From Candidatus Latescibacterota bacterium (lineage in GTDB: Bacteria > Latescibacterota > UBA2968 > UBA8231): 64,000 nucleotides of DNA. The stretch lies in contig CBDETK010000013.1 of NCBI GenBank assembly GCA_965242865.1, positions 2,112,001 through 2,176,000 on the forward strand. Reading direction: 5' to 3'. The notes beneath the pieces are model-generated. The model ran no database searches. It was given only the letters and a program-made list of their open reading frames with translations, and was not told the DNA's origin. This document shows positions 11,470 through 33,447 of the stretch, one piece after another. Every line of letters starts with the position of its first letter. Positions within the stretch are counted from its first letter, which is position 1. Both the position numbers and the translations under genes were made by a program.

Positions 11470-11483
11470 TTACCTATGGAGGC

Positions 11484-11564
11484 GTCATTCCCACAAAAGA
11501 ACGTCACCCCGTGCTTCCGACACGGGGCGGGAATCCAGTCTTGAAGGATGTAGAATTGCTATAT
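11484..11564 (+). repeat. Composite REP-like element (ATTCCC..GGGAATCCAG with nested CCCCGTG..CACGGGG hairpin) plus IS630-type end
   Basis: Near-identical inverted copy at ~38366-38415; 3' part matches 4355-4392. Confidence 0.7.
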
Positions 11565-11728
11565 CTCAAAGGATGAGGTTGGGAGCGGCATGAAGGGGTG
11601 CGCTGCCAACGTATTGCCGAAGAAAAACACTGTCAAGACGCGCCCCGCGCCGTGCGTTGACATAGAACGGGGCAGGTCGCTTTTTATGCCCCGCGGCCTA
11701 GCCGCGCTTTTCTCGGATGAAATTCGCA

Positions 11729-17700: not shown

Positions 17701-17731
17701 ACGCGCCGTTGGCCCGGTTTCGACCGAGTAA
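14717..17731 (+). CDS. res: Type III restriction enzyme Res subunit
   Basis: LATGTGKT, NDEAHHCY, LSATP, LTEGWD, EQVVGRALR helicase motifs; C-terminal YRPDFIV..VEIKG nuclease. Confidence 0.88.
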   Translation: MTEFFEQPVLNSPYERPRRHWELDESGQPTQQIVESRRAAEFITPIPQPKKREGAAAQQAALVFDAAAQQLEAAGQQYDLTAIINGVRQQVDRWRDLPNPSQWQVTPETARLLQHWRHHRFSGIRPFFCQVEAVETAIWLTEVAPRMGRRGQRFLNHLAQASPDLPRLALKLATGTGKTTVMAMVIAWQTVNAVRRPQSRRFTRGFLVVTPGITIKDRLRVLQPNDPDSYYQSRELVPSDMLPDLEKAKIVITNYHAFKRRERLELSKGGRSLLQGRGETLATLETEGQMLQRVMPELMGVKNVLILNDEAHHCYRENPGEGEEGALRGDDRKEAEKNAEAARLWISGLETVGQKLGVNRVLDLSATPFFLRGSGYAEGTLFPWTMCDFSLMDAIECGIVKLPRVPVADNIPGGDMPKFRNLWDHIRPNMPKKGRGKGEELDPLNLPVELQTALAALYGHYEKTFELMEAASIGVPPCFIVVCNNTATSKLVHDYIAGFYRGTTLVHGRLKLFRNFDEQGNPYLPPRTLLIDSEQLESGDALDKNFRAVAADEIDRFRREIIERTGDRRQADNISDAALLREVMNTVGKPGRLGASIRCVVSVSMLTEGWDANTVSHVLGVRAFGTQLLCEQVVGRALRRQSYDLNEDGLFDVEYADVLGIPFDFTAKPVVAPPKPPRETVQVRAVRPARDALEIRFPRVAGYRVELPADRLAAEFNEDSVLELTPDLVGPSSTRNEGIIGEGVDLDLVHTNDLRTATLLFHLTQRLLYEKFRDPGEEPKLYLFGQLKRITSEWLDTCLVCKGGTYPAQLMYQALADTACERIFAAITRKGIDHRPVKAVLDPYHPIGSTAHVHFNTTQTRRWQTDARRCHLNYVVLDSDWEAEFCRVVEAHPRVKAYVKNHNLGLEVPYRSGSQPRTYRPDFIVLIDDGNGDDLLHLIVEIKGYRGEDAKDKKAAMDTYWVPGVNQHGDCGRWAFAEFADVYEVEAAFNEMIKQRAVGPVSTE

Positions 17732-17866
17732 CTGGAGTTTGCCGCGATAGGGGTTGCTCACTTATTACACGACAGCAGCCGCCCGTCCGCCAAGGAAGGA
17801 GGGCATGATGCGTTCATGGATTCCCGCTGTTGCGAGAATGACCGAACCAGCGGCCCGCCTGCCGAA

Positions 17867-17914
17867 GGATCGAGGGCATCTTGCCCTCGTCGAGGGCGGG
17901 ACGCCCTCGATCCC
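17867..17914. repeat. REP doublet (REPIN-like)
   Basis: GGATCGAGGGCatcttGCCCTC..GAGGGCgggacGCCCTCGATCC: two short hairpins inside a longer inverted repeat. Confidence 0.6.
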
Positions 17915-17939
17915 GGATGTGTACTTAGGAGGAATGGGA

Positions 17940-19415
17940 ATGCTTTGGGATAGTGATCGCTTGTTGTTGCAACTTGAACTCGGTGAGGACAGCCGCGTTG
18001 AGTTCAAGGAAGCTGTGTTTAGCGGCAACCGCGTCCGCGCACCGCATCGGGACGCCATCGCCGACGAGTTGGCCGCTTTTGGCAACACCATCGGCGGCAC
18101 CTTGATCTTCAGCGTGTCCGACGACGGTGCAGTGCGGTTGATGAGCCGACAACAGCTGGACGCGCTCGAAGCCTTCGTCGGCGAGCTTTGCTCGGATAGC
18201 ATCCGTCCCCCGTTGGCGTTTGTCACCCAACGGCTCGCGCTGCCCGATGGTTCGTTTGTGCTAGTCGTCGCCGTCGAACAGAGCGCGTTGGTCCACAAGA
18301 GTCCCGGGGGCTACCTGTCCCGCCAAGGTAGTTCCAAGCGAGAGCTGTCACCGGAGGCATTGAACCGTTTGTTTCAGCAGCGGGCGCGTTCTGGCTTGCT
18401 CGGGCCGGACGAAGGGATCGTCGCTGGCACCGGGGTCAACACGTTAGACGCGACCCTAGCGGATCGTTTCCTGAGTTCGCGCGCGACCGAGCCTACAACG
18501 GTCCAACTCACAAAGCTGGGGCTGGTGCGGGAGGACGACAGCGGCGTGCTCCGCGCCACGGTGGCCGGGGTGCTGCTTTGCACGACGCGCCCGGATGAGT
18601 ATATACGCGGCGCACTGATCGAGGCGGTGCGCTATCGCGGCACAGTGTCGGGCCGTGCGAGCCAGCTCGATGCCGCGTCCATCACCGGCCCGTTGGACCA
18701 GCAGATCCGCGATGCCGTCCACTTCGCTCGGCTCAATACGCGGGTCGCGGCGCGCAAGGCCCCTGGACGCGTAGAGACTCCGCAGTTTAGTCCGCGCACC
18801 CTGTTTGAGGCCATCGTCAACGCCGTGGTCCACCGCGACTACTCGGAAAAGGCGAAGATACGGCTCTTCATTTTTGACGACCGCTTCGAGTTGTACTCGC
18901 CGGGTGCTTTGCCCAACACCCTGCCTATTGAGGCCATGCGCAATCGACAAGCCACTCGCAACGAAACGCTCGCGTCCATTCTCCGCATGCTCGCGGTCGG
19001 GGATATTGCCGGGGCCGGGGATCGGCAGTATTTCTTGGAGCAACGCGGCGAAGGGGTTCCGGTCATTTACGAGCAGACCCGGGCGCTGACCGGGCGCGAG
19101 CCAGAGTATGAACTGCTTGGCGGCCCAGAACTGCGGCTGACGATACCGTCCGCTCGTCCGCCGGTATCGGGCATCCAAGGGGAAGTGTCGGTATCTGCGG
19201 GCGGTCAGCCGCTTGCCGGCGCACAGGTCGTTGTGCTGTATCCCAACAAGACTTGGATGGAGGAAGCAACCGATACGTTTGGCCGGGTCGCTTTTGGGTT
19301 CCATTCGGAACTTCCCATCACTGTTTTTTGCGCGGCCTCAGGGTATGGTGCTCACGTGGAGCGGGATTGGCACCCGCCGGAACCGCTCGCCGTGCCGCGT
19401 CTTGGGCGTAGATGA
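17940..19415 (+). CDS. Schlafen/AlbA2 DNA-binding domain plus RecG-C/HATPase-like protein; C-terminus probably cut by a deletion
   Basis: GEDSRVEFKE, LAAFGNTIGGTLIFSV, EAIVNAVVHRDYS, SPGALP; AGGAGG RBS at 17927-17932. Confidence 0.78.
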   Translation: MLWDSDRLLLQLELGEDSRVEFKEAVFSGNRVRAPHRDAIADELAAFGNTIGGTLIFSVSDDGAVRLMSRQQLDALEAFVGELCSDSIRPPLAFVTQRLALPDGSFVLVVAVEQSALVHKSPGGYLSRQGSSKRELSPEALNRLFQQRARSGLLGPDEGIVAGTGVNTLDATLADRFLSSRATEPTTVQLTKLGLVREDDSGVLRATVAGVLLCTTRPDEYIRGALIEAVRYRGTVSGRASQLDAASITGPLDQQIRDAVHFARLNTRVAARKAPGRVETPQFSPRTLFEAIVNAVVHRDYSEKAKIRLFIFDDRFELYSPGALPNTLPIEAMRNRQATRNETLASILRMLAVGDIAGAGDRQYFLEQRGEGVPVIYEQTRALTGREPEYELLGGPELRLTIPSARPPVSGIQGEVSVSAGGQPLAGAQVVVLYPNKTWMEEATDTFGRVAFGFHSELPITVFCAASGYGAHVERDWHPPEPLAVPRLGRR

Positions 19416-20247
19416 AAACGACGAACTCATCGACACCGCAGCCGAAGCCAAGCTCGGCTACGGCGAAAAACAGGACTTCGCCGCCATGATCTTGGACAAC
19501 CTCAAAACCTCCGGCGTCCAGCAGGCGCACAAAGAGGACAAAATCGCCTTCTCCGGCATCAAACCTTGGCCCGGCGACCTCGTCTGCGCCGAAGGAACCT
19601 ACACCGAAGGCGACGCGGACGCCGGCGCGGAGAAACGCGCTGGCATCTTCGTCGGCCCGGAATTTGGCACTGTCTCCCGCCCGGATCTCGTACTCGCCGT
19701 GCGCGAGGCCGCCGACGCCAACTTCGACGTCCTCATCACCTGCGCCTTCAACTACGACGCCCACGCCTCCGAGTTCAACAAACTCGGCCGCGTCCCCGTG
19801 CTCAAGGCCCGCATGAACGCCGATCTACACATGGCCGACGACCTCAAAAACACCGGCAAGGGCAACCTGTTCGTCATCTTCGGCGAGCCAGACATCGACA
19901 TCCTCGACGCACCGGACGATCAAATCCAAGTCAAGGTCAACGGCGTAGATGTGTTCCATCCCAACACCGGCGAAATCCGCAGCGACGACGCCGACGGCAT
20001 TGCCTGCTGGTTCATCGACACCGACTACAACGAGGAGAGCTTCTTCGTCCGCCACGCCTACTTCCTCGGCGCCAACGACCCGTACAAAGCACTGCGAACG
20101 ACGCTCAAAGCCGAGATCAACCCAGAAGCCTGGGAAACCCTCCACAACGACACCTCTCGCCCGTTCGCCAAGCCAGCGTCCGGCCGCATTGCGGTAAAGG
20201 TGATCAATCATCTGGGCGACGAGGTGATGAAGGTGTTTCGGGTGTGA
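19395..20247 (+). pseudogene. mod: C-terminal fragment of type III RM Mod methyltransferase (catalytic N-terminal part missing)
   Basis: GPEFGTV, CWFIDTDYNEESFFVRHAYF, GRIAVKVINHLGDEVMKVFRV are typical of Mod C-termini paired with this Res type. No DPPY or FxGxG motif and no start codon at the junction. Confidence 0.75.
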
Positions 20248-20264: not shown

Positions 20265-23200
20265 ATGTCTATCCCTGACCAAAGTCATATCAACCGAGTC
20301 CGCGACGCCCTTTGGCAACGTTCGGGCGGCGGTGCGTCCGTCATGGTTGGGAGCGGATTCAGTAGAAATGCTCTCAAAACCCGCCCCGACGCAAACGACC
20401 CGCCGACATGGCGCGAGGTGGCAGAAGCGGTATATGACAAGCTATATAGAGACCGCGATGCGATTGCGGAAGCCTCGCAAACGAGCGACTTCTTGAGGTT
20501 GGCCCAAGAGTATGAAGTTGCGTTTGGACGTGGGGATCTGCACCGCTTCATCCGAAACCTGATCCGGGACGACGATTTCAAGCCCGGCGATCTACATACG
20601 CGGTTGCTACGGCTTCCTTGGCGCGATGTCTTCACAACCAATTGGGATACCCTTTTGGAACGGGCGCGTATTTCCGTGGCTGGTCGCGCTTACAGCGTCG
20701 TCCGAAATATGGACGAAATTCCGCAGGCGAACCGGCCGCGGATCGTCAAACTGCACGGATCACTCCCTGCTCATTTTCCGCTGATCTTTACGGAAGAAGA
20801 TTACCGAACTTATCCGAGGAAATTTGCTCCTTTCGTGAACACCGCTCAGCAAGCAATGATGGAAACCGTGTTCTGCCTGATTGGTTTCTCAGGGGACGAT
20901 CCGAACTTCTTGGAGTGGTCGGGATGGGTACGCGACAATCTGGGGAAAGCGGCACCGAAGATATATCTAGCCGGGTGGTTAAACCTGTCGTCTCACAGGC
21001 GCCGAATGCTTGAAGATCGCAAGGTCGTCCCTATCGATCTTGCACTTCATCCGAAAGCTAGCGAGTGGCCGGAGTCCCTTCGTCACCAATACGCAACCGA
21101 GTGGCTTCTGTACACGCTGGAACGTGGAAAACCCTATGATGTGACGGCTTGGCCTTCGACAATCGATCAAGAACCTGTGGAGGTGCCAACACACCTTGAT
21201 CCAATTGAAGTGGTCACATCCGTTACTCCCAAAAAGGAGCCATACTCCCCTTCTGAATTGAGTGAATCTGAGAACGTCTCGGATTCGGTCCGGCAACTAC
21301 TTGAAATTTGGCAGCACAACCGGAAAATCTATCCCGGCTGGTTGGCCGTTCCGAGCAGCGAACGAACATTCCTGAGCCTATCTACAGATGAATGGGAACC
21401 GACGATTCTACAGGTGCTCCCTGACTTTGCGCCGATAGACCGGCTGAATGCCATCCGCGAATTAGTGTGGCGCAAGGAAATTCTGCTGGAGCCAATCTCA
21501 CCTCAGCTTGAATCTGCGGCGGAAGAAGCCCTAAAGCCGATAGATTGCCACCGCCGTACTATAGACGGTGTCGTCGATTCGACGATTGAATGGGCCGCTG
21601 TTAGAGAGGCTTGGCGCACGGTCGCGCTCGCGCTTGTGACGATTGCACGATTTCGCTTTGATGAAGATGCCTTTGAGAAGCGGATCGCGGCACTATCACC
21701 TTTCCGTAACGATCATCCCGACGTCGCTCAGCGAATACATCATGAGCGTTGTCTATGGGCAATTTACGCGCTTGACTTCGAGAGATTGGAAGACTTGGTC
21801 AAGGATTGGCAGACTGAAAATTGCGATCCGGCCTGGATGGTACGGAAAGCCGCCATCCTTTCCGAAATGGATCGAAAGGACGACGCAATTGAATTGCTCA
21901 ATAACGCGCTTTCGGCTATTCGTGATAACCCCGGAGATGAGCACAGTTTAGCCGGTCCTTCCCGCGAGGGTTGGGCACTGTTGCAGGCACAGGCGTTTGA
22001 AAGAGAATTTAGTGGACAAGTAAAAAACCAGATCGACGCCCCTCTAGCCTTTACGAGATGGCGGGAGTTGGCATCTCTGAAATGCGATGCGTTCACAGAG
22101 AAGCACTGGTACGCCGAAGCAATCAAGGGCAGTGACAAAAAGGATGAAAAACTGCCCTTCGATCTCGGCCATCAGCAAGGAGATACAATTCATTTTTCCA
22201 ATGCCGAATATGCCCGACAAATCGCAGCTTACCGAGCGATCCGACTCTCCGAAGTGGCCGGACTACCTCCAGTCGTAGCCTCGGATATATTAAAACTTGC
22301 TGCGGGTAAATTGTCCATGACGAATCCAGAGATGGCCGTACGTCTAGTTCTCCGAGTTTCGGACTACGAAGACCCCATGCTTACCCAGGTTTTTTCGCGC
22401 ACTCGGGTGGCCACCCTTTCAGCAGATTCAGCGAAGACACTGGCGGAGATCTGTAATAGCTTGATCGAGTATGCGCTACCCCGGATGGTTAGCACGGCTG
22501 CACGTGGACTCCGCCCTATATTCTGGATTGAGCGAATGGGTGTCGCAATGGAGGCACTATCACGGCTGGTCCTTCGTCTAGACCCCGATACGGCAGAAGC
22601 CATCTTCAACAAGGCACTGGAGCATTATCGAAACCAGCAAGTTGCACAATATCTACAGATGGCAGCCCCTGTCCGAGACCTGTTGAAACGCTCGGGGGAA
22701 ACTCTGCCGGAAGATCGCCGAACTGCTCGTGCTCTCGATTTGTTGAGTTCGCCTATCATCGGAATGGACAACTTTACGGCGAAATCCGCTATCCGCTATC
22801 CAGATCCTGGAGAGTTGCTACAAGACGATGAACTTTTTTCGCTGCCCCGGACTGCCGACAATGAGCACCGCTGGCAGGAAGTCGTCAGTTTATTGGTGCG
22901 TGGCCTACATGCTGGAGGTGAAGCACACAAGCGAGCGTCCCTTAGAATAGTGCCTGTGGGGTTTTGGGGCCGACTGACAGAAGCTGAATCGTCGCAAGTT
23001 GCTCAAGCTCTTTGGAGCGAAAAGTACACTGGTCCCAACGATCTGCCCGGCGAAACTGATCTCTTGGACTGGGTATTTATCTTGCTCCCCGAACCTGAGC
23101 TTGGTTTGGCGGAACAGCGATTCCGTCGCAAATGGCTCACCGCCGGCAATGCGCCACAAGGAGATGCGCCTAGTCACGACGATATTCTCTGGCAAGTCGG

Positions 23201-24056
23201 GAACGCCATATCTTGTCTGAAAAATCACCAGCGTCCACTGGAGCTATCGGAAGACGAACGGGCCTACCTGATTAAGGTAGTTGAGCAGTGGTCAGATACT
23301 CCAGTGCCAAGTCATTTCTTCGGTCCTATTGAGAGGCAACTCCGCGAACCTACCCGGCGTGCGATCATCGGCCTGCGCATGGTCATTTCTGAAATCCAAA
23401 TTCCTATGCCTATCGGTGAAAAGCTCTACAAAAAAATTCAAGCCTTAAAAGGTTCCGACACGCCAGGACTAGAGCTTATCGCCGGCATCGTTAGGGCATT
23501 GCCTGATCATCTTGATAAAATCGCTTTATTGGTGAGGATGGAATTGACATCTGATGATAGCACCTCGGCCAAGAACGCAGCATGGGGATTGCTCTTTTGG
23601 TTGGTCGAGTCCGCCTCAACACCTGAACTCTGTCCTCCGTCGGACGATTTGATTCGTGAAATCGGCATCATAATCGCTACCCGTAGGAAAGTGGTTCTCG
23701 CACAGGCATTGCAGACCGCTAAGTGGGTGTTTGCGGAGGGGAGCGAAGCTCAGCGAGAAGTCATTGGGCAATTGGCGATACAGGGTCTCGGTTATCTGGC
23801 CGAGGAGTTACGCTACGACAGGGAACACGATCAGGGCGATGACTTCGACGTACCGCTTCTGCGTTGGGGCTGTGCCCACCTTGCCTTGGCAATGGCGGAG
23901 CGTGGCTTTAGCGACGACCCGACAGTTACTCGCTGGTTGGAGATTTCCAAAGAAGACCCCCTCCCCGAGGTGCGACACGCAAAGCATCCCTCTCTCGCTC
24001 GTCAGCGTAAGGAAGCGGAGGGCACTGACGACGCACCAACTTCTCAGGCCGAGTAG
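20265..24056 (+). CDS. SIR2-domain anti-phage protein, Dsr1-like
   Basis: VMVGSGFSRNA, FTTNWDTLLE, VKLHGS, LIGFSGDDPNF SIR2 motifs; long helical C-terminus; 1263 aa. Confidence 0.8.
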   Translation: MSIPDQSHINRVRDALWQRSGGGASVMVGSGFSRNALKTRPDANDPPTWREVAEAVYDKLYRDRDAIAEASQTSDFLRLAQEYEVAFGRGDLHRFIRNLIRDDDFKPGDLHTRLLRLPWRDVFTTNWDTLLERARISVAGRAYSVVRNMDEIPQANRPRIVKLHGSLPAHFPLIFTEEDYRTYPRKFAPFVNTAQQAMMETVFCLIGFSGDDPNFLEWSGWVRDNLGKAAPKIYLAGWLNLSSHRRRMLEDRKVVPIDLALHPKASEWPESLRHQYATEWLLYTLERGKPYDVTAWPSTIDQEPVEVPTHLDPIEVVTSVTPKKEPYSPSELSESENVSDSVRQLLEIWQHNRKIYPGWLAVPSSERTFLSLSTDEWEPTILQVLPDFAPIDRLNAIRELVWRKEILLEPISPQLESAAEEALKPIDCHRRTIDGVVDSTIEWAAVREAWRTVALALVTIARFRFDEDAFEKRIAALSPFRNDHPDVAQRIHHERCLWAIYALDFERLEDLVKDWQTENCDPAWMVRKAAILSEMDRKDDAIELLNNALSAIRDNPGDEHSLAGPSREGWALLQAQAFEREFSGQVKNQIDAPLAFTRWRELASLKCDAFTEKHWYAEAIKGSDKKDEKLPFDLGHQQGDTIHFSNAEYARQIAAYRAIRLSEVAGLPPVVASDILKLAAGKLSMTNPEMAVRLVLRVSDYEDPMLTQVFSRTRVATLSADSAKTLAEICNSLIEYALPRMVSTAARGLRPIFWIERMGVAMEALSRLVLRLDPDTAEAIFNKALEHYRNQQVAQYLQMAAPVRDLLKRSGETLPEDRRTARALDLLSSPIIGMDNFTAKSAIRYPDPGELLQDDELFSLPRTADNEHRWQEVVSLLVRGLHAGGEAHKRASLRIVPVGFWGRLTEAESSQVAQALWSEKYTGPNDLPGETDLLDWVFILLPEPELGLAEQRFRRKWLTAGNAPQGDAPSHDDILWQVGNAISCLKNHQRPLELSEDERAYLIKVVEQWSDTPVPSHFFGPIERQLREPTRRAIIGLRMVISEIQIPMPIGEKLYKKIQALKGSDTPGLELIAGIVRALPDHLDKIALLVRMELTSDDSTSAKNAAWGLLFWLVESASTPELCPPSDDLIREIGIIIATRRKVVLAQALQTAKWVFAEGSEAQREVIGQLAIQGLGYLAEELRYDREHDQGDDFDVPLLRWGCAHLALAMAERGFSDDPTVTRWLEISKEDPLPEVRHAKHPSLARQRKEAEGTDDAPTSQAE

Positions 24057-24150: not shown

Positions 24151-24462
24151 ATGAAAAACATAACGCTGAGTGCTGACGAGCAGCTAATCGAAGCGGCGTA
24201 TCAACGCGCCGCAGAAGAGCACACTACGCTGAACGAGCAGTTTCGGCTGTGGCTCAAACACTACGTTCAATCCGAGCGGCAATCGTCAGCGGCACAAGGA
24301 ACATTGGCGGACTTTCTCCAAGGGCATATCGGCATCCTGCACAGCAGTGAATACGTGCCCGGCGGTGCTCGTATGTCGGTAGATAGCGGCAAAAAGGTGC
24401 TTGGGGCCAGTGAACTGAGACCGGCTGGGCAGAGTAGGCCAAAAACAGGAGACTCGCAATGA
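24151..24462 (+). CDS. Small antitoxin-like protein (RHH-like N-terminus), possibly chimeric
   Basis: MKNITLSADEQLIEAAYQRAAEEHTTLNEQFRLWL beta-helix-helix pattern; no cognate toxin follows. Confidence 0.5.
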   Translation: MKNITLSADEQLIEAAYQRAAEEHTTLNEQFRLWLKHYVQSERQSSAAQGTLADFLQGHIGILHSSEYVPGGARMSVDSGKKVLGASELRPAGQSRPKTGDSQ

Positions 24463-25877
24463 ACGAACTTGGGAACTCCACAGGCGCGACCCATCCCGAT
24501 GTTCGGATTTCGGCAACAAATTTCGGCCCCATCGCGAGCAGCACCGTCGATCTGCGCCCATTGACCGTATTCGTCGGTCCGAGCAATACCGGCAAGACTT
24601 ATTTCGCCACTTTGATTTACGCCTTGCACCGGATTCTGGGTGGATTTCCACGGCTTCCTAGTATGCGCCGCTATCGTCATCCCTTTTTTCAAGGGCTACC
24701 TTATGGACTGGCCACGGATGCTGAGGCACAGCAAGAGCTCCAAGACTTTCTCAAGAAGTTAGATGTCAAGGGGCGGACATTCAGGTTCTCCGACCTGCCC
24801 AGAAGTGTGCGCGATGCAGCACAGGCGGCTGTCAGTGATCCCGATTTTCTGGGCGAGTTTCTACAGACAGAACTCAGACGCTGTTTCGCTCTGGAGTCGG
24901 TTTCCGGTCTAGTTCGATTCTCCGGTCAATCCAACAGGATGGAGGTTGCGCTGGCTATCAGTGAACAAGAGCAAGACCTCTGGCGTTTCCGCATGGAGAT
25001 CGCCGAATCGGGTGCCATCACGGATGGACGAATCGCGGACCGTTTCCATGGCGACCCCTCGCACTGGATCGACTCTGTTCGCGAACGCGAGACGCATTAC
25101 TTGCCGGCCGCCCGCAGCGGTACCATGCAGAGCCATCGCCTCATCGCCAGTGCTCTCGTGGCGCGTTCCCCCCACGTGAGAATGGAACATTTTCCCGAGC
25201 TTCCGACGCTTTCAGGTGTAATGGCCGATTTCATGCAGCATCTCATCCTTTACGAAGAGCACCGATCAACCAACCCGTCAGTGAACGCACTAGCGGAAGT
25301 AGCGGAAGTACTGGAACGCGAGGTGCTGGCCGGACAGATTAGGACTAGGCGGTCCCTATCGGGAGGGTTCCCAGAATTTGTGTACCGACCGTATGCAACC
25401 GAAGAGGAGGTTCGCCTGACCCGCGTTTCATCCATGGTGTCCGAACTCGCTCCCGTTGTGCTGTTTCTCCGCGGTGCTATCGGACGTGGCGACACGGTCA
25501 TCATTGAGGAGCCCGAAGCGCATCTTCATCCCGCCGCCCAGACCCAGATGGCGGAGACCCTAGGGCGCATGATCTGCACAGGGATCCGAGCGGTGGTCAC
25601 GACGCACAGCGACTGGTTGCTCAAGGAACTCGGCAACCTGATGCGGGAGGGGGAACTAAAAGAGAAAACAGGGGAACCCCTTTCGGGTTCGCTCCGGCCA
25701 AGCGAGGTGGGAATCTGGTTATTCCGCAAGGATGGAACGTCGGGTTCGACCGTGGAGGAAATCCCGTTTGACCGCAGCGAAGGCGTGGAGCCTAATGAGT
25801 ACGAAGGCGTCGCTGAAGAACTTTACAACCGCTCAGCGAACCTACAAAACCAACTCGAGGAACGCGAGCATGAATGA
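24459..25877 (+). CDS. ABC-type (AAA_15/AAA_21-like) ATPase
   Basis: NFGPI, GPSNTGKT Walker A, IIEEPEAHLHP Walker B/D-loop, VTTHS H-loop. Confidence 0.85.
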   Translation: MNELGNSTGATHPDVRISATNFGPIASSTVDLRPLTVFVGPSNTGKTYFATLIYALHRILGGFPRLPSMRRYRHPFFQGLPYGLATDAEAQQELQDFLKKLDVKGRTFRFSDLPRSVRDAAQAAVSDPDFLGEFLQTELRRCFALESVSGLVRFSGQSNRMEVALAISEQEQDLWRFRMEIAESGAITDGRIADRFHGDPSHWIDSVRERETHYLPAARSGTMQSHRLIASALVARSPHVRMEHFPELPTLSGVMADFMQHLILYEEHRSTNPSVNALAEVAEVLEREVLAGQIRTRRSLSGGFPEFVYRPYATEEEVRLTRVSSMVSELAPVVLFLRGAIGRGDTVIIEEPEAHLHPAAQTQMAETLGRMICTGIRAVVTTHSDWLLKELGNLMREGELKEKTGEPLSGSLRPSEVGIWLFRKDGTSGSTVEEIPFDRSEGVEPNEYEGVAEELYNRSANLQNQLEEREHE

Positions 25878-26376
25878 GGTTCTCGACGAAATTCAGTCAC
25901 AAGTGGGCACCGACAACCTCAGCAATTCGTGCAGCCGCGATGGATGCCGGGTGTCCATGGAGGATGTTCCATCTCGTCGAGTCGTGATCGACGCGGATCG
26001 GGCGTTCCCGGCTCACTAGATGGAAGAAGGTAAACAATGCGATTATATCCTCTTTTTTACTAATGCAGGCCAAGACATTCTCTTCACGGTTCCGATGGAG
26101 CTCAAAAGCGGCGGTGTTGACGCATCGGCGGTGTCCGAGCAATTGCAACGGGGCGCGGAGTTCGCCGCTCGCTTCGTGCCGACAGCTTTCAGGACTATAT
26201 GCCACCCGGTCCTATTCCATGGCAAGAGCATTCACCCCAAGCAACGCAAGACGCTTAACCGCGCCAAGGTTCTCTTTCGCGGCCGCCAGTTGACTATCAA
26301 GACGGCACGCTGCAATCAACCCAAGAATCTGGCGCGTGTGCTAGGGGACGAGGTGATGAAGGCGTTTCGGGTGTGA
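25870..26376 (+). pseudogene. Small PD-(D/E)XK-like nuclease partner of the ATPase, interrupted by an in-frame TAG at 26017-26019
   Basis: ATG at 25870 overlaps the ATPase end; 25870-26016 and 26020-26376 are in the same frame; CDY..ELK motif. Confidence 0.6.
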
Positions 26377-26391
26377 GGAGTGCTGCACTTA
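26341..26391 (+). repeat. Direct repeat copy 3 (duplicate of mod 3' end)
   Basis: 26341-26378 matches 20212-20249 at 35/38 and encodes LGDEVMKAFRV*. Confidence 0.88.
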
Positions 26392-26413
26392 TGACTACTA
26401 AAAAGAGGTTCCT

Positions 26414-26644
26414 ATGAAAAAACAAACCATCCAATACACTTCGCCCATTGACGCGCTCATTGCCGTGACCAAGCGGTTGAGTACCTATGAAAATCAGCAA
26501 CAGATGGATTCGGGAGAGTTCTTTGACCAGTACAGCCGGGGGCAACTAGCCGACGACGCACAATTCGTCGATTGGGCCAACGATTACCGCCACTATTTGC
26601 AACTATTACAAAGTACCCTCAAAACACCGCCCGATGCCGCTTGA
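26414..26644 (+). CDS. Small antitoxin-like protein (TumA-like), no toxin partner
   Basis: AGAGG RBS; YENQQQMDSGEFFDQYSRGQLADDAQFVDWA pattern; overlaps the convergent gene by 39 bp. Confidence 0.55.
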   Translation: MKKQTIQYTSPIDALIAVTKRLSTYENQQQMDSGEFFDQYSRGQLADDAQFVDWANDYRHYLQLLQSTLKTPPDAA

Positions 26645-27496
26645 ATAATTCTCATTAAATTGATTAGAGGGGGCATAAACAAGCCCGATTTTCTGCCTTT
26701 GTCTTTGGATTTTGTACAACGTTATGGCTGTGGGCTTTGGCCCTAAGGAACTCATGATTATGTTGTAAGAAGAGCCAAGTTGCTCCAAGACATCTTGGAT
26801 TGCGGACATTCCTCGATCTTCAGCGAAAGCATCTAACTCAAATCTCTCGCAGTCGTATTCTTTTTTGTATTTATCGATTATTTCATTATAAGTCTTCACA
26901 GCGTTCTCGTTCTGCGGAAAAGGCGATGGATGTTGAACGCCAAGCATTAGCTTTGCCGGCTCATACCAACTGATGGGCCTCTCTGCTCTTGAGGGATCAA
27001 AGCCCACAGTTACCAAAAGTGCTGTCTTAGCTGACGGGGCCGCAATCCCTGAGAGTTTATATACAAGCCGTGGAGCTCGGGGATCTCTGCTTAACCACTC
27101 GCTTCCATAGTTACTAGGACGGTGATACACGTACCGTGCTAGTATTGAATTTTGCTCAACTTGCCACAATACATACCAAATTATTTCGCGTGGCATAGTC
27201 GAGATATCAATTAAGGTCCCTCGACATTCTGCAATAACCCGTTCAATAGAGTCCAGTACTTTCCGCCAATTATCTGCGGGTTCGTCAATGTCAAGTTCTA
27301 CTGGAATATACTCAATACACCCAGCTTTGCATGTCTTTTCAACCTCATCTCGATTCGCTTGCGTTCGGTTCGCATAACTGCTGAAATAAAACACTAGCAC
27401 TTTCTGAAGGCCGATCTTCTCCAAATTACGCTCGAATCCTATTCTGAAGCGATCTTCCCAGCTCGCGAAAGTGACGAGTAAATTACTGTTGTTCAT
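26606..27496 (-). CDS. Hypothetical protein, possible tandem CARF-like Rossmann domains
   Basis: Two alpha/beta halves with LIDISTMPRE and IIMSSLGPKP motifs; last gene of the low-GC operon. Confidence 0.55.
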   Translation of the reverse strand: MNNSNLLVTFASWEDRFRIGFERNLEKIGLQKVLVFYFSSYANRTQANRDEVEKTCKAGCIEYIPVELDIDEPADNWRKVLDSIERVIAECRGTLIDISTMPREIIWYVLWQVEQNSILARYVYHRPSNYGSEWLSRDPRAPRLVYKLSGIAAPSAKTALLVTVGFDPSRAERPISWYEPAKLMLGVQHPSPFPQNENAVKTYNEIIDKYKKEYDCERFELDAFAEDRGMSAIQDVLEQLGSSYNIIMSSLGPKPTAITLYKIQRQRQKIGLVYAPSNQFNENYSSGIGRCFEGTL

Positions 27497-29249
27497 CCCA
27501 TAACTCCATCTGGTTATCATCTTGGTGATTCAACCCTATATCAAGCGTTCCGCTTTCCGTCGCCTTCCAAAGAGCAGCGGCTGGTATCGAGACCCTTGCA
27601 TGCTGGCCATGTGGATCAAGACCGCGAATTGGCCAGAGGATTTTGTTTGGCATATAATGAGTTTCTCTTCTGCCTTCATCCTTAGCCGAACCACTTCGTA
27701 TGTATAATAGCTGTGCCTTCCGCAGTAATTCAATTAAGCGATTCAAATTGACCATTATATCTTGGTCCCGGCCAGAAATAGTAAATGACAGGGCACACGG
27801 CTCCGATGGATGGTGTAGAAGTCGATCGCGGAAATGGACAGCAAGGGCATCAAGCAGATTAAATATCCGTCGGCCATCTTCCATAGAACAGTCCTCAATA
27901 TCCTGCGCGACTCTGTCCTTTACCCACTCCCAAGTACGTTCGCTCCGTTCCAAAATAACCTTGGTTTGTATTTCTGAGGGTATATTGGAAATTCTCTCCA
28001 AGCCTCCTTCTCTTTCCGTTTCTTTCATCTTAGAAACTACGCTATCGAACATCCAAAAACACGGTTCGAGAAGATTTCGGATCACGCCGGTTGATATAAA
28101 CACTAGTGTTTCAAAACCGGAGTATGGTGGCCTATTCGCTTTTGATGGACGGTTCTTAAAATAATGCGCCCTTTTATGTTTATACACATAATCATTTATA
28201 GGCTTTCTGTTTTCTTCTCCAAATTTACGAACAGCCTCCTCTCGAACTATTTTCTCTGATTTTTCTAAGTCCCTTTCCATAGTAGCACTCACTGGAAAGA
28301 ATTCTTTGGGAGTGGCGGAAATAGATGCCTTCTTCAGCCGTCGCTCAATTAGACTGCAAGCGAGTTTGTAGAAATTGGTATTCTTGTTATGCAAAGGTGC
28401 TTCCAAGTCAATTTGTGTGTAGTCATGCCCTTCAAGAATCGATCCACCAGATGACGTGATTTTTGTTTGAGTACCAACTTTAGCGACCGCTACCTTAAAG
28501 CTAAAAAGAGAATGATCGCGATACGCTATCCAAGAGTTCAATGCGCGGACTTGATGTTCATTCAGCGCATGTGCATCATCAAGCAAAAGAAGAAAATGAG
28601 AATTTTTAAGCCGCGGAATTTTATTAGAACACATATTTAGAATTGGAACAAGTACAGATGCAAACGAAAACGTATTCTCATAGAACGTTTCCTCGTTTCC
28701 GCTATTGATCGTTCTTTGAGTGACCAATAACTCTCTCTGAAGGAACTGCTTAACGGCTTCAAAGAAACTTACACTTTCTGGCAACTCTCCTCCCATTACA
28801 AAATTCGTCTCACTATGTAGATGTGATTCGTCAGAACCTTCAAGTACATCAGGTATTTCTGCAAGAGTTTCAGCCAAGCCGTATGCGATTGACAATACGA
28901 GAAAATGCTCCGATAGCACAGACCCTTGAAAGTCGTTGAGCAGTTGATATTCTGTTTTGTGAGTTAGCGGCGTATTGCAGGGTATATACACACCGATTGC
29001 CGAGAACGATGGCTCTTTTCCTTCCCTCTCTGCGAGAAGTTTCTGAAGCCGCCACCTGTTAAATAGCAAGGCCATGGTTTTACCACTGCCACGTTCACCA
29101 ACCAAAAAGACATTGCGTTTGGATTGAATGAATCGAGAATAATTGAAGTCGTCAATGTAGTAGTCCACTATCATCTCATCAGTGAGGTTATTTGCGGCCT
29201 CGTACTCAAACGGATTATTGTTATTCATAATGGCTATCTCCGCGGGCAT
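27483..29249 (-). CDS. P-loop NTPase, ORC/CDC6- or STAND-like
   Basis: NPFEYEAA N-terminus, GERGSGKT Walker A, LLLLDDA Walker B, STGVIRNLLE sensor-like motif. Confidence 0.72.
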   Translation of the reverse strand: MPAEIAIMNNNNPFEYEAANNLTDEMIVDYYIDDFNYSRFIQSKRNVFLVGERGSGKTMALLFNRWRLQKLLAEREGKEPSFSAIGVYIPCNTPLTHKTEYQLLNDFQGSVLSEHFLVLSIAYGLAETLAEIPDVLEGSDESHLHSETNFVMGGELPESVSFFEAVKQFLQRELLVTQRTINSGNEETFYENTFSFASVLVPILNMCSNKIPRLKNSHFLLLLDDAHALNEHQVRALNSWIAYRDHSLFSFKVAVAKVGTQTKITSSGGSILEGHDYTQIDLEAPLHNKNTNFYKLACSLIERRLKKASISATPKEFFPVSATMERDLEKSEKIVREEAVRKFGEENRKPINDYVYKHKRAHYFKNRPSKANRPPYSGFETLVFISTGVIRNLLEPCFWMFDSVVSKMKETEREGGLERISNIPSEIQTKVILERSERTWEWVKDRVAQDIEDCSMEDGRRIFNLLDALAVHFRDRLLHHPSEPCALSFTISGRDQDIMVNLNRLIELLRKAQLLYIRSGSAKDEGRRETHYMPNKILWPIRGLDPHGQHARVSIPAAALWKATESGTLDIGLNHQDDNQMELWDEQQ

Positions 29250-30232
29250 TTAGAAAGTAGGTCAGCAACAAGGGCATCAATTGAGTAAGCCGAATTTATG
29301 TCTGCAATCTCCTTTGTTTGGTCCCCAGGAATTACTATATCAGTCAATTTGAGCGGCATAAGATCAATATCGAGTATATCACTACCACAGTGAAAGTTAA
29401 AGGTAACTTGAGTGAACTTAAACGGTTCGAGAAGAGGACTATAATAGCGAGCGTACTGCCGTTCTTGATTGAGTTTTTGAATTCTCTGATAAGTACGGTT
29501 TAAGTGGTCTGAAAGATGTTTCTCACGGATCTCGTCGGTACTATCCACATCTATATCTATCTCGTACGTTAAAACAATTCGGTTGTTCTGACGGTCAATT
29601 AGAATGTTCGTACTAGACGCATAATCATGAAATTGTTGTGACTCTGGTTCATAAAGACCTTCCTTTTGCATAAAATCCGACGTTCGTTGAGGACCTTCCG
29701 CTAGTTCATCGGCAAAGCGAAGAATAGCTGCTAATTCGCGCAACCGTACACGGCTTCCTTCCAATTGATCGACTTCGCCAACTTCTTTGAGTGTATCCTG
29801 TGAACCGTCTTGTGCAGTTCCCGTATGGGCACGTGTGGATCGAACGATTAGCGTCTTTTCACGGCGGAGCGATGCATCCGTTCCGCGAATGCGATCAAAA
29901 ATGTTGGAGACATTCTTGTGATGATCGTTTCGTCCATAAACATTACCTGCATCATGGAAGATGATAAACATTCCGAGGCAATACATTTCGATACCTGATA
30001 GATCTTTGATCATGTCGTCGTCTGCGAGAAGACGAATGACGTTCTGCTTCACATTTGACACATGCGTTGCACCGTGATCGGAGAGACTTGGTTCAGCACC
30101 TTGAATGTTCGGGTACACTTCCCTTTCGAGCTTTGACTGGGCTTGCTCGTAGGCACTGGCGAGTTCTCTTCCCTTACTTCCTTCAAATTGTTCCAGAATT
30201 TTGTCGCGCAGTTGCTCGTCAAAAGTTGGCAC
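29234..30232 (-). CDS. HD-superfamily phosphohydrolase
   Basis: DHGATH, FHDAGN, RAHTG, LRFADEL give the H..HD..H..D metal-binding pattern. Confidence 0.78.
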   Translation of the reverse strand: MPTFDEQLRDKILEQFEGSKGRELASAYEQAQSKLEREVYPNIQGAEPSLSDHGATHVSNVKQNVIRLLADDDMIKDLSGIEMYCLGMFIIFHDAGNVYGRNDHHKNVSNIFDRIRGTDASLRREKTLIVRSTRAHTGTAQDGSQDTLKEVGEVDQLEGSRVRLRELAAILRFADELAEGPQRTSDFMQKEGLYEPESQQFHDYASSTNILIDRQNNRIVLTYEIDIDVDSTDEIREKHLSDHLNRTYQRIQKLNQERQYARYYSPLLEPFKFTQVTFNFHCGSDILDIDLMPLKLTDIVIPGDQTKEIADINSAYSIDALVADLLSKCPRR

Positions 30233-30256
30233 CTTTTTACTCCCTATATTGTTCTC

Positions 30257-31318
30257 TCAAACACAACTGTCTTGAAGTTGTCTAAACACAGCCTTCGCAA
30301 GCAGTGGGGGTACAGCGTTGCCGACCTGCTGCTGCTGAAATCCAATGGATCCAGCGAACTCGTATGAATCGGGGAACGATTGTATCCGAGCGGCTTCACG
30401 AACCGAAAGACCTCGATCTTGTGATGGATGGATGAGCATATTCTTTCGGTAATTTCCAATGACAATAGACGGACGGTCGTAACGGAGTCTATGGTAAATA
30501 CCCGTGTGGCATCGGTGCCGGTCTTTGTAATTTTTCATCATCTTCAGAGGAATGTCCTCCCAATTACCTCCCGGGGGAACAAATCGGTATCGACGTATTA
30601 CTTCATCATTATTCTTAGTAACCAAATGGCTGGAGCACCCAGCTAATCCTTGGCGAATCTCCTCGGCGTATGTAGATGGCGGGATATTACCATAAGGCAA
30701 CCATGACTCAGTGGTGCCATTTACGAGATGAGGCAGATCGGCAATAGCATCCTCAACTGTCGTCGGTAGCGATACTGTTGGTCGGGGTAGTTCAATCTCT
30801 TTATTGATTCGTGAACCTATTAAAAAAAATCGGTTACGTCTTTGTGGCACACCGAAGTCAAGAGCATTTAATATGCCACAATTTATCGTATAACCCAATA
30901 GTTTGAATCGATCAATGATGATGTCGAGAATAATTCCCTTATCCGTATCGACAATTCCTCGGACATTTTCAAATACGACGAAATCAGGTTGCCAGATTTT
31001 AACCACACGGACGAAATCATCGAACAACCAGTTATTTTTATTTTTTATCCCACGGGTGCGTGTATTGGAATACGAAAAACCCTGACAAGGAGGTCCCCCA
31101 AAGACAACAGTACCATCCGAACCGCGAGGTATCTGCCTAATTTTTTTTGAAGGTAATCGGCGAATGTCGTCAACAAAAATCTCGCAATGCGGATGATTGT
31201 TGCGATATGCACAGGCAGCGTATTGATCGGACTCAACAGCGAATTTCACATCAATTCCGGCTTGGGCAGCACCTGTGCTCATCCCACCGACGCCGGCGAA
31301 TAAATCTATGGCTATCAT
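30257..31318 (-). CDS. DNA (cytosine-5)-methyltransferase
   Basis: DLFAGVGG, GGPPCQGFS, FENV, QRRNR, REAARIQSFPD, QVGNAVPP. Confidence 0.93.
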   Translation of the reverse strand: MIAIDLFAGVGGMSTGAAQAGIDVKFAVESDQYAACAYRNNHPHCEIFVDDIRRLPSKKIRQIPRGSDGTVVFGGPPCQGFSYSNTRTRGIKNKNNWLFDDFVRVVKIWQPDFVVFENVRGIVDTDKGIILDIIIDRFKLLGYTINCGILNALDFGVPQRRNRFFLIGSRINKEIELPRPTVSLPTTVEDAIADLPHLVNGTTESWLPYGNIPPSTYAEEIRQGLAGCSSHLVTKNNDEVIRRYRFVPPGGNWEDIPLKMMKNYKDRHRCHTGIYHRLRYDRPSIVIGNYRKNMLIHPSQDRGLSVREAARIQSFPDSYEFAGSIGFQQQQVGNAVPPLLAKAVFRQLQDSCV

Positions 31319-31377
31319 TGTAATCGAGTTCTATATAAACTCGCTCATGGTGTTAAGAATCTGACTTCCGCTGGGGA

Positions 31378-31421
31378 CGCCGTGTCTCGCCTAAAACTCG
31401 GATGTATGGCGAGACACGGCG
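31378..31421. other. Perfect 14-bp inverted repeat upstream of the methyltransferase operon
   Basis: CGCCGTGTCTCGCC-N16-GGCGAGACACGGCG. Confidence 0.6.
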
Positions 31422-31490
31422 ACCTCTCCTTGGAAGCAATATACAAGAATAGGAAAAAGAGCAAAAGACCTAATGCCCTTCGCAAGTTAT

Positions 31491-31520
31491 GAGACCGCTT
31501 GCTTCTAAGAAGCGGTCTGA
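31491..31520. terminator. Hairpin downstream of dnaK (possible terminator, built from MITE-like ends)
   Basis: AGACCGCTT..AAGCGGTCT stem just past the dnaK stop; the same motif occurs at 37981. Confidence 0.45.
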
Positions 31521-31527
31521 AACCCCC

Positions 31528-33447
31528 CTACTTCTTGTCGTCATCTACCACCTTGAAGTCCGCATCCACCGCCCCCGAGTCTCCGCCCCCTTTCGGCTGA
31601 CCGGCGGCACCCTCCGGGGTTGGCCTGTCCTGCGCCTGTTGGGCTTGGGCGTCCTTGTAGATCTCCTCGGCCAGCTTGTGCGACGCCTGTTGCAGCGCGG
31701 TCATGGCCAGCTTGATGGCCTCGTCGTCCGTGCCTTCGAGGGCTTCCTTTAGCGCGGCCACCGCGTCCTCAACGCCTTTCTTGTCGGCGTCGGTTAGCTT
31801 GTCGCCGTGCTCGGCAACGGACTTTTCGGTCGCGTAGATGAGTTGGTCGGCCTCGTTGCGGCGATCGACGGCTTCGCGGCGCTTTTTGTCCTCATCCGCG
31901 TGGGCCTCGGCGTCCTTTTGCATGGTGTCAATCTCGTCTTGGCTCAGGCCCGAGGACGCCTCAATGCGGATGGATTGCTCCTTGTTGGTGCCCTTGTCCT
32001 TGGCCGCGACGTTGAGGATGCCGTTGGCGTCGATGTCGAAGGTCACCTCGATTTGGGGCATGCCGCGCGGGGCCGCGGGAATGCCGTCGAGGTGGAAGCG
32101 GCCGAGGGTGCGGTTGTCGTTGGCAAACTCGCGCTCGCCTTGCAACACGTGGACTTCCACCGAGGGCTGGTTGTCCGAGGCCGTGGAAAAAATCTGGCTC
32201 TTCTTGGTGGGGATGGTGGTGTTGCGGTCGATCAGCTTCGTCATTACCCCGCCCATGGTTTCGATCCCCAGCGCGAGCGGCGTGACGTCGAGCAGCAGGA
32301 CGTCGTCGACGTCGCCCGCTAACACGCCGGCCTGAATGGCCGCGCCCAAGGCGACCACCTCGTCGGGGTTGACGCCCCGATGCGGCTCCTTGCCAAAGAG
32401 CGCTTGCACCACTTCTTGGATTTTCGGGATGCGCGTTGAGCCGCCGACCAAAATCACTTGGTCGATGTCGCTGGCTTGCAACTCGGCGTCGGCGAGGGCC
32501 TGCTGGCAAGGGGCCTTGGTGCGCTCGACTAGGTCGTCGACCAAGCGCTCGAACTGGGCGCGCGACAGGCTGGTTTGCAGGTGCTTGGGGCCGGTCTGAT
32601 CGGCGGTGATAAAGGGCAGGTTGATATCGGTCGCCGTGGAGGAGGACAACTCGATTTTGGCTTTTTCGCCTGCTTCTTTGAGCCGTTGCAGGGCCATCGG
32701 GTCTCGGCGCAGGTCAATGCCCTCACTCTTTTGAAATTCCTCGGCGAGCCAGTCGATGATCTTCTGGTCGAAATCGTCGCCGCCGAGGTGGGTGTCGCCG
32801 TTGGTGGATTTGACCTCAAAGACGCCGTCGCCGAGCTCGAGGATGGAAATGTCGAAGGTGCCGCCGCCGAGGTCGTACACGGCGATCTGCTCGCTGGAGC
32901 CGCCCTTGTCCAAGCCGTAGGCCAGCGCCGCGGCGGTCGGCTCATTGACGATGCGCAAGACCTCCAAGCCGGCGATGGTGCCCGCGTCCTTGGTGGCTTG
33001 GCGTTGGGAGTCGTTGAAGTACGCCGGCACGGTGACGACAGCTTGTTGCACTTCCACGCCCAGATAGTCTTCGGCCGTCTGCTTCATCTTTTGCAAGATC
33101 ATGGCCGAGATTTCCGGGGGCGTGTGTTCCTTGCCGTCAATTTTGGCCACGGCTAAGTCGCGGCTGCCTGGGGCCACTTCGTAGGGCACTTCGCTTATTT
33201 CGTTGGCGACTTCGCCGTAGCGGCGGCCCATGAAGCGCTTGATCGAGTAGATCGTGTTTTGCGGATTGGTGACGGCTTGGCGTTTGGCGGTCTGGCCGAC
33301 GAGACGCTCGCCCTCTTTGGTGAAGGCGACCATGGAAGGCGTGGTGCGGCCTCCTTCGGAGTTGGCGATGATCTCTGCGTCTTGGCCTTCGATGACGGCG
33401 ACGCACGAATTGGTGGTGCCTAAGTCAATGCCGATGACTTTAGCCAT
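31528..33447 (-). CDS. dnaK: Chaperone DnaK (Hsp70)
   Basis: [37 protein letters not shown]; AAGGAGG RBS. Confidence 0.98.

Follow-up and report, generated by a model that had tools for sequence, protein, structure and literature searches.

A conserved cassette of a C5 methylase, an HD-CE protein, an ORC-like ATPase and a CARF6 protein as a candidate methylation-linked immune system

Do a DNA methylase, an HD-domain hydrolase, an ORC/Cdc6-like ATPase and a CARF protein that lie next to each other in a bacterial genome belong together and, if so, what might they do as a unit? We asked this for positions 26606-31318 of a 64,000-nucleotide stretch ("the window") of a Candidatus Latescibacterota bacterium (assembly GCA_965242865.1, contig CBDETK010000013.1, positions 2,112,001 to 2,176,000 of the forward strand). 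An earlier reading by a model that saw only the letters and their open reading frames (ORFs), the sequence-only reading, had proposed a nucleotide-signalling or nucleotide-depleting anti-phage system coupled to DNA methylation. Our analysis supports that proposal: the genes recur together, the fourth protein has a CARF-like fold and the set matches no named system, while the role in defence and the choice between signalling and depletion are things we infer. The 4 genes are one horizontally mobile unit. We favour, with a probability of roughly 0.6, a methylation-linked immune system in which the methylase marks self, the ATPase and the CARF6 protein sense, and the HD protein hydrolyses a nucleotide-type substrate; that the cassette serves defence in some form appears highly probable. 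All 4 ORFs lie where the sequence-only reading had placed them, tightly packed head to tail on the minus strand and intact, with zero internal stops:

30257..31318, minus strand: C5 cytosine DNA methyltransferase, operon gene 1, 353 aa (PF00145, TIGR00675, motifs)
29234..30232, minus strand: HD-CE phosphohydrolase, predicted effector, 332 aa, GTG start (PF24391)
27483..29249, minus strand: ORC-CDC6-like AAA+ ATPase, 588 aa by the longest ORF; likely ATG at 29228, giving 581 aa (PF24389)
26606..27520, minus strand: tandem-CARF protein of the CARF6 group, 304 aa by the longest ORF; likely ATG at 27496, giving 296 aa (PDLC01917)

Conservation of the four genes as a unit

We collected 27 loci from species-representative genomes with the CARF protein alone as the query, and searched them by tblastn with the 4 window proteins. 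The loci span Binatia, Gemmatimonadota, Gammaproteobacteria, Poribacteria, Planctomycetota, Acidobacteriota, Desulfovibrio and Bacteroidota. All 4 genes are present together in 21 of the 27 and, because the same set recurs in loci anchored on CARF alone, the arrangement is not due to chance. Their order is that of the window (methylase-HD-ATPase-CARF) in 16 of these 21, and HD-ATPase-CARF-methylase in the other 5, which are all from Acidobacteriota. The remaining 6 loci are either truncated at contig ends (L013, L023, and L025) or decayed (L004, L024, and L027). Intact HD-ATPase-CARF trios that lack a C5 methylase were not found among the 27 loci, which answers, for these loci, a survey that had been proposed from the sequence: every intact trio among them comes with a methylase. 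Moreover, clustering of 374 flanking ORFs from 30 loci returned these 4 as the only widely recurring genes.

Further copies extend the picture. The window's own phylum contains 3 more, with only about 26% (ATPase) and about 20% (CARF) identity to the window proteins, yet with the same 4 genes in the same order. Two others reside on plasmids of cultured Agrobacterium and Yoonia, where the RefSeq name of the 3 partners of the methylase is "hypothetical protein", and cassette copies occur on conjugative plasmids. The expectation that the genes would be found together elsewhere is therefore borne out across many phyla, in divergent relatives and on plasmids. Across 22 loci, the identities to the window proteins are strongly correlated for HD and ATPase (Spearman 0.87), HD and CARF (0.85), and ATPase and CARF (0.92), and less so for the methylase versus the other three (0.55-0.62). 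The weaker co-variation arises because the methylase remains 53-66% identical to the window copy even in the most divergent cassettes (L062, L064, L068, and plasmid L077), in which the ATPase is only about 25% identical.

The damaged copies deserve a brief description. In L004, the HD gene and half of the ATPase gene are gone and the methylase gene is inverted, L024 has a CARF gene without an ATPase gene upstream, and in L027, a 5' fragment of the methylase gene is fused to a 3' fragment of the CARF gene. In L011, the HD match is split into 2 overlapping pieces, likely as a result of a frameshift.

The block had also been described as more AT-rich than its host, and this holds: its GC content is 44.0%, compared to 54.5% in the left flank, 58.1% in the right flank and 58.4% in the 64-kb window, and 500-nt windows give 41-48% within the 4 genes versus 53-64% outside. 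The same trend is seen elsewhere, since cassette GC lies below that of every available flank in 17 of 20 related loci. The cassette is horizontally acquired. The reported overlap of the last 3 genes stands for one junction only. By longest-ORF starts, HD and ATPase overlap by 16 nt and ATPase and CARF by 38 nt; however, the first residues of homologues correspond to Met8 in the ATPase and Met9 in the CARF protein, which gives lengths of 581 and 296 aa, and GGAG is present 6-9 nt upstream of both corresponding start codons (29228 and 27496). With these starts, the ATPase and CARF genes still overlap (14 nt), whereas HD and ATPase are separated by a gap of 5 nt. Between the methylase stop and the HD start lie 24 nt, which include GGGAG.

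The four proteins and the predicted ATPase-CARF6 complex

The methylase is a clear C5 enzyme (PF00145, 5.5e-66; TIGR00675, 7e-61). Its best PADLOC model is MTase_II (PDLC03234, 1.6e-110), followed by matches to DruM (2.8e-79) and DrmMII (2.1e-58). The stretches FAGVGG, PPCQGFS, ENV, QRRNR, and GNAVPP, which we take to be the C5 methylase motifs, are visible, intact and conserved. Among 27 cassette methylases, conservation of the target-recognition region equals that of the catalytic core; an unrelated Dcm in L027 aligns over the C-terminal 131 residues only, at 33% identity. Together, these observations suggest one dedicated methylase lineage, perhaps with one target motif. As had been noted from the sequence, the Dcm has no obvious restriction partner: searches with Pfam, NCBIfam, and PADLOC gave no match to a restriction nuclease or Vsr family for the cassette proteins or the small ORF at 26020-26376, a scan that did not include the ORF at 26414-26644. 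The same 3 libraries gave no nuclease-family match for the HD, ATPase, and CARF proteins.

The HD protein is a member of the Pfam HD-CE family (PF24391, 74.7 bits versus a cut-off of 27). Its H...HD...D metal ligands are intact and conserved and the HD fold is present. Foldseek of the model gave no match at E <= 0.001, and no relative of solved structure was detectable by sequence for the HD profile. The structural neighbours of the model are small-molecule phosphohydrolases, with no HD nuclease among the top 50, and the substrate is probably a nucleotide-type small molecule.

For the third protein, the sequence-only reading had given "CDC6/STAND-like ATPase". The first half of that label is right and the second is not: the protein belongs to the ORC/Cdc6-like AAA+ family PF24389 (4.6e-100, 336.5 bits versus a cut-off of 27) and is not a STAND ATPase proper. 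In 30 homologues, Walker A residues G44, R46, G47, G49, K50, and T51 and Walker B residues D217 and D218 are invariant, including the arginine within the P-loop GERGSGKT. By sequence, no relative of solved structure could be detected for the ATPase. With regard to phage carriage, no ATPase relative was found in a pattern scan of viral contigs or by tblastn against phage records, both of which have limited sensitivity.

The fourth protein has no Pfam family above cut-off. Csa3_N (17.1 bits versus 27) and TIGR01884 (15.3 versus 60.2) fall short, its sequence having diverged too far for such models to recognise it. In PADLOC, it matches PDLC01917 ("CARF6--CARF_CARF_CARF", 2.6e-34, residues 9-300) and 7 further CARF6 models, a label that reportedly goes back to the 2020 CARF classification by Makarova. 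No relative of solved structure was detectable by sequence for the CARF profile. The family is a diverse one, with 1059 clusters (50% identity, E <= 0.001) found by this profile. The predicted structure (AlphaFold2, 42-sequence alignment, predicted local distance difference test (pLDDT) 91.1, predicted TM-score 0.91) consists of 2 Rossmann-like halves, as had been proposed, and these are modelled as a tandem CARF fold. The fold was recognised via VIA-align, with the cyclic tetra-adenylate (cA4)-binding proteins Csa3 and Can1, the latter with 2 CARF domains in its chain, as the best matches. Foldseek was insufficient here, giving mostly spurious global matches (KaiC and the KCC C-terminal domain) and one local CARF match (Cam1). 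The CARF polar signature after strand 4 is [DN]x[ST]xxx[RK]. Both loops singled out from the sequence, DISTMPR in the first CARF domain and SSLGPKP in the second, lie in invariant columns of the 42 homologues, and DISTMPR and SLGPK fit the polar motif after strand 4. The invariant residues are D97, M101, P102, R103, S250, L251, G252, P253, and K254 (296-aa numbering). We expect the resulting pseudo-dimeric pocket to bind a nucleotide-type ligand.

More can be learned from cassettes with the same ATPase and a different effector. A PF24389 search of 168 genomes of the phylum gave 19 carriers, and we annotated 11 loci that are not of the HD type. CARF6 is present in 10 of these 11, either directly after the ATPase (8 loci) or fused to its C-terminus (2 loci, CARF6--CARF_STK_AAA). 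The effector slot is filled by PRTase-CE (PF24390; PRTase, phosphoribosyltransferase) in 3 loci; in 2, the ATPase instead carries a fused TIR domain at its N-terminus, and in at least 3 a protein kinase at that end. DNA methylase genes (N6_N4, small-MTase type or DUF1156) or type I restriction-modification (R-M) genes adjoin 8 of the 11. The pair of ORC-like ATPase and CARF6 thus forms the constant core, with a swappable effector and with DNA modification as the usual companion. The fusions of effector to ATPase and of ATPase to CARF follow the gene order, which argues for a physical complex by Rosetta-stone logic. In an alignment of 6 N-termini, no docking segment shared between the HD-CE and PRTase-CE effectors was visible.

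Two of the sister loci have unusual layouts. In L071 (G048:C32, genes 6694-11611), DruA takes the place of the methylase in a kinase-ATPase plus CARF6 cassette, and GmrSD adjoins. The window's own genome has a second system (L066, G000:C13:5295560-5313227) within a type I R-M operon, hsdM-hsdS-[TIR-ATPase]-[CARF6]-hsdR, in which the TIR-ATPase fusion (761 aa) and CARF6 (318 aa) lie between hsdS and hsdR. The PrrC anticodon nuclease holds the same position in its type I R-M system.

Structure prediction supports binding of the ATPase to CARF6. The pair reached an ipSAE, which is the model's own confidence, of 0.80, versus 0.00 for the best of 3 controls; among solved complexes, 116 of 157 attain this mark, and among mismatched pairs, 2 of 215 do. 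At least 88% of the contacts are shared between runs, with a partner pLDDT of 83 or higher. On the ATPase, the predicted contacts involve residues 82-96, 112-120, and 163-177 (a long insert between strand 2 and Walker B), the N-terminal motif and D218, and on CARF6 they involve mainly the inter-domain linker 143-158. The modelled interface falls on invariant residues.

A possible mechanism and its rivals

How might these parts work together? We propose that the C5 methylase would mark the host's own DNA, and that the ORC/Cdc6-like ATPase and the tandem-CARF protein would form a stable sensor or regulator complex. This complex may integrate two inputs: a cue from DNA, where the ATPase probably reads incoming DNA that is unmethylated, and a small nucleotide-type ligand in the CARF pocket. 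Once triggered, it would switch on the HD enzyme, which would hydrolyse a nucleotide-type small molecule rather than DNA, so that replication of the invader, and possibly of the cell, would be starved. The family would then belong to the catalogued methylation-linked conflict systems, most likely those directed against phage.

The proposal invites the question of what the CARF pocket senses, given that the cassette contains no cyclase. Among 5 complete carrier genomes, 4 have a Cas10-like match and 2 a SMODS match; in a further 19 carriers, searched with one Cas10 model and in many cases metagenome-assembled genomes of unknown completeness, each was found in 2. [quoted passage not shown] A hint towards another cue comes from thyX (flavin-dependent thymidylate synthase, PF02511), which travels with a subset of the cassettes. 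It adjoins the cassette in L006, L008, L010, L011, L017, L019, and L064, as well as the Agrobacterium plasmid cassette and the PRTase-type locus L059, and the window cassette itself has none. Within the genus, only 2 of 31 genomes (G134 and G146) have thyX, both directly beside a PRTase-type cassette, and all 5 genomes tested carry thyA elsewhere. Seen alongside an HD fold of the small-molecule type and the alternative PRTase and TIR effectors, this pattern suggests that the conflict is fought over nucleotide metabolism, and the recurrent thyX hints at a metabolite of the pyrimidine-deoxynucleotide or methylation pathways as the CARF cue. A more specific version of the mechanism, tentative and somewhat doubtful as it stands, is that this CARF sensor has no dedicated cyclase: ATPase and CARF6 would read DNA methylation together with such a metabolite, and would unleash an HD enzyme that collapses the nucleotide pool. 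If true, an R-M-like check of self versus non-self would be coupled to abortive infection, and this would be the first ligand-gated CARF pathway outside CRISPR.

The same genes can be read differently. In a strict R-M system, the HD protein would be a DNA nuclease, the ATPase a motor or recognition subunit and the CARF protein an allosteric regulator, with the methylase protecting host sites. HD domains can be nucleases, as in Cas3, and such a system predicts the methylase in every intact copy; the conserved target-recognition region looks as if a partner reads one fixed motif, and the cassette is located among R-M genes. We nevertheless consider this unlikely, because PRTase, TIR, or kinase domains, which are not known to be nuclease families, fill the sister effector slot while ATPase, CARF6, and methylase stay, and because the structural neighbours of the HD protein and the family searches of all 3 partners speak against a nuclease. 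A different possibility is that the cassette is an accessory to cyclic oligoadenylates made in trans, such that the tandem CARF would sense a type III CRISPR or CBASS product and release the HD enzyme, with the methylase as a passenger. The resemblance of the fold to cA4-binding Csa3 and Can1 fits this, as do the Cas10-like matches in 4 of the first 5 carriers and the contents of the window's own genome, which has Csm1 (1.5e-160), another Cas10-like ORF, and 3 SMODS genes. However, that Csm1 is at 4.78 Mb of contig C13 and the cassette at 2.14 Mb, 2.6 Mb apart, and no cas families lie beside the cassette among its flanking genes or in the annotated related loci. With most carriers lacking both Cas10 and SMODS matches, and with a methylase kept in all 21 complete copies, quite unlike a passenger, we regard this account as very unlikely in general.

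Rather than defending the cell, the cassette might serve itself. It would then be a module for addiction or guarding: a toxic trio would be kept silent by the methylase or its product, and loss of the cassette or phage anti-restriction would release the toxin, much as in post-segregational killing by R-M systems or in the guarding of type I R-M by PrrC. Copies on conjugative plasmids, the TIR-ATPase and CARF6 pair between hsdS and hsdR in the window's own genome, and the methylase fragments kept in decayed copies (L004, L027, and the same-genus genome G139) agree with this. Most copies are chromosomal and in defence islands, though, and loss of the cassette is possible, as the decayed copies demonstrate; we consider this the least probable of the accounts on its own, and it is compatible with the methylation-linked immune system that we favour.

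Several points weigh against that preferred system. The methylase tracks the other 3 genes less tightly than they track each other, and its coupling may differ from what we propose. A methylation-reading component within the cassette is presumed. ATPase residues 340-581 had no usable ESM Atlas match. The ipSAE of the complex was obtained with alignments built within this analysis and expresses the model's confidence in itself. Finally, the carrier counts depend on the scope of the cyclase search given above and, with Csm1 and SMODS genes in its own genome and Cas10-like genes in 4 of the first 5 carriers, a trans-acting cyclase may operate in this host.

Insertion site and relation to known systems

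The cassette sits in a defence island. To its left are R-M and anti-phage genes, and to its right dnaK, a HicB-like gene, a kinase gene, and uvrB. The surrounding features are as follows:

14717-17731, left of the cassette: type III res-like gene
17754-19415, left of the cassette, between the res-like and mod-like genes: Schlafen/AlbA2 ATPase gene
19213-20247, plus strand: type III methyltransferase match by profile, last ~300 of 983 model positions, 3.2e-143
20265-24056, plus strand: full-length Dsr2 homologue, SIR2 and TPR, PADLOC 5.4e-174
24151-25877, plus strand: ATPase of AAA_15/AAA_21 type, matching PD-T4-4_A, NsnB, and AriA models
26605..31524, unstranded: segment inserted relative to the same-genus genome G130, from homology breakpoints
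31375..31424, unstranded: inverted repeat with 17-nt arms, 94% complementary, 16-nt spacer, between the dnaK hairpin and the methylase start, from a repeat search
31461..31483, minus strand: terminator-like hairpin after the dnaK stop (31528) and ahead of the methylase start, from a consensus scan only; 9-pair stem, then a T-rich tail

The partial profile match suggests that the ORF at 19213-20247 is a truncated or interrupted mod gene. A 103-aa ORF after Dsr2 overlaps the start of the AriA/PD-T4-4-like ATPase gene.

The history of the site can be followed within the genus. In G130, the region homologous to the window reaches as far as 26604, about 120 nt short of dnaK, and relative to this empty site the cassette is an insertion of approximately 4.9 kb. 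For most genomes of the genus, alignment to the window begins no earlier than about 31524, the dnaK stop. In G145, Dsr2 occupies the slot downstream of dnaK, and G139 has kept dnaK, the intergenic region, and ~550 nt at the start of the methylase gene (88% identity to 31662-30769) before the sequence turns into unrelated DNA; this fragment is a deletion relic. The slot downstream of dnaK (window 26341-26604 and 31524-31530; L087-L089) is a variable defence hotspot within the genus. No direct repeats or att-like sites were found at the insertion borders, and no tRNA within the 64-kb window. With respect to expression, the terminator-like hairpin after dnaK suggests that read-through from dnaK into the cassette is not expected, and the inverted repeat at 31375..31424 could be an operator or a second terminator. 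A scan for sigma-70-like promoters upstream of the methylase found none, the number of sites being no higher than in shuffled sequence, and is uninformative for this host.

Is the system already known? Its parts are catalogued, as Pfam HD-CE (PF24391) and ORC-CDC6-like (PF24389) and as PADLOC CARF6, and the window locus is a typical, intact member of a widespread known kind that has no described system name. The statement in the sequence-only reading that it recognised no described system agrees with what we found: PADLOC 2.0.0 has no model for the HD protein and none for the ATPase, RefSeq offers no functional name for the 3 partners of the methylase, and our literature search found no description of a methylase/HD/ORC-like ATPase/CARF cassette, which does not establish its absence from print. 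Nor did that search find a paper that explains the PF24389, PF24391, and PF24390 families. Membership of the window proteins in the Pfam ORC-CDC6-like and HD-CE families is clear; these entries are a domain catalogue and not a described system. If the cassette defends, it would show how self-marking by methylation can be linked to a response that is abortive or metabolic and does not cut DNA, and 4 genes in about 4.7 kb would provide a tractable handle on what non-CRISPR CARF domains sense. Because the cassette occurs on plasmids of cultured bacteria, it is directly testable.

The closest relatives are in the CARF6 group itself (PADLOC-DB PDLC01910-01925), to which the window protein belongs by profile match. 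Makarova et al. (2014; PMC4012209) describe fused kinase-AAA+-CARF proteins with an arginine inside the P-loop. The window ATPase has this arginine in common with them; in contrast to the fusions, the window CARF is encoded by a separate gene, an HD protein takes the place of the kinase as effector, and the unit includes a C5 methylase. PRTase-CE, an alternative effector of the sister loci, came up in our literature search only as a Pfam label beside type III-A retrons in another study (PMC13712802).

BREX provides a second comparison. According to one account (PMC12839542), it has a BrxC or DUF499 ATPase of the ORC/Cdc6 clade, a methylase and the phosphoesterase PglZ. The likeness lies in joining a methylase for DNA to an AAA+ ATPase of the ORC/Cdc6 clade and a phosphoesterase, in the absence of any classical restriction nuclease, and one sister locus has a DUF1156 methylase. 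However, the HD, ATPase, and CARF proteins of the window match no PADLOC BrxC, PglZ, or PglX model, and the window cassette has a small C5 methylase and a CARF sensor, with all 4 genes in approximately 4.7 kb. The matches of the methylase to DruM and DrmMII, as well as the DruA gene in one sister locus, recall Druantia type II and DISARM class 2, but the partners match no DruE/F/G or DrmA/B/C model.

CARF domains are understood almost wholly as receivers of type III CRISPR cyclic oligoadenylates. Here, a tandem CARF is tied to an ATPase of the ORC/Cdc6 type, a methylase and a swappable effector that is presumably not a nuclease, mostly in genomes without detectable Cas10 or SMODS. One of the best fold matches, Can1 (PDB 6sce), is presented in the literature as a type III CRISPR CARF effector (PMC9704534). 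Compared with Can1 and other type III CARF effectors, the window CARF has neither a fused nuclease nor a link to cas genes and, in the complex model, it would instead dock on an AAA+ ATPase.

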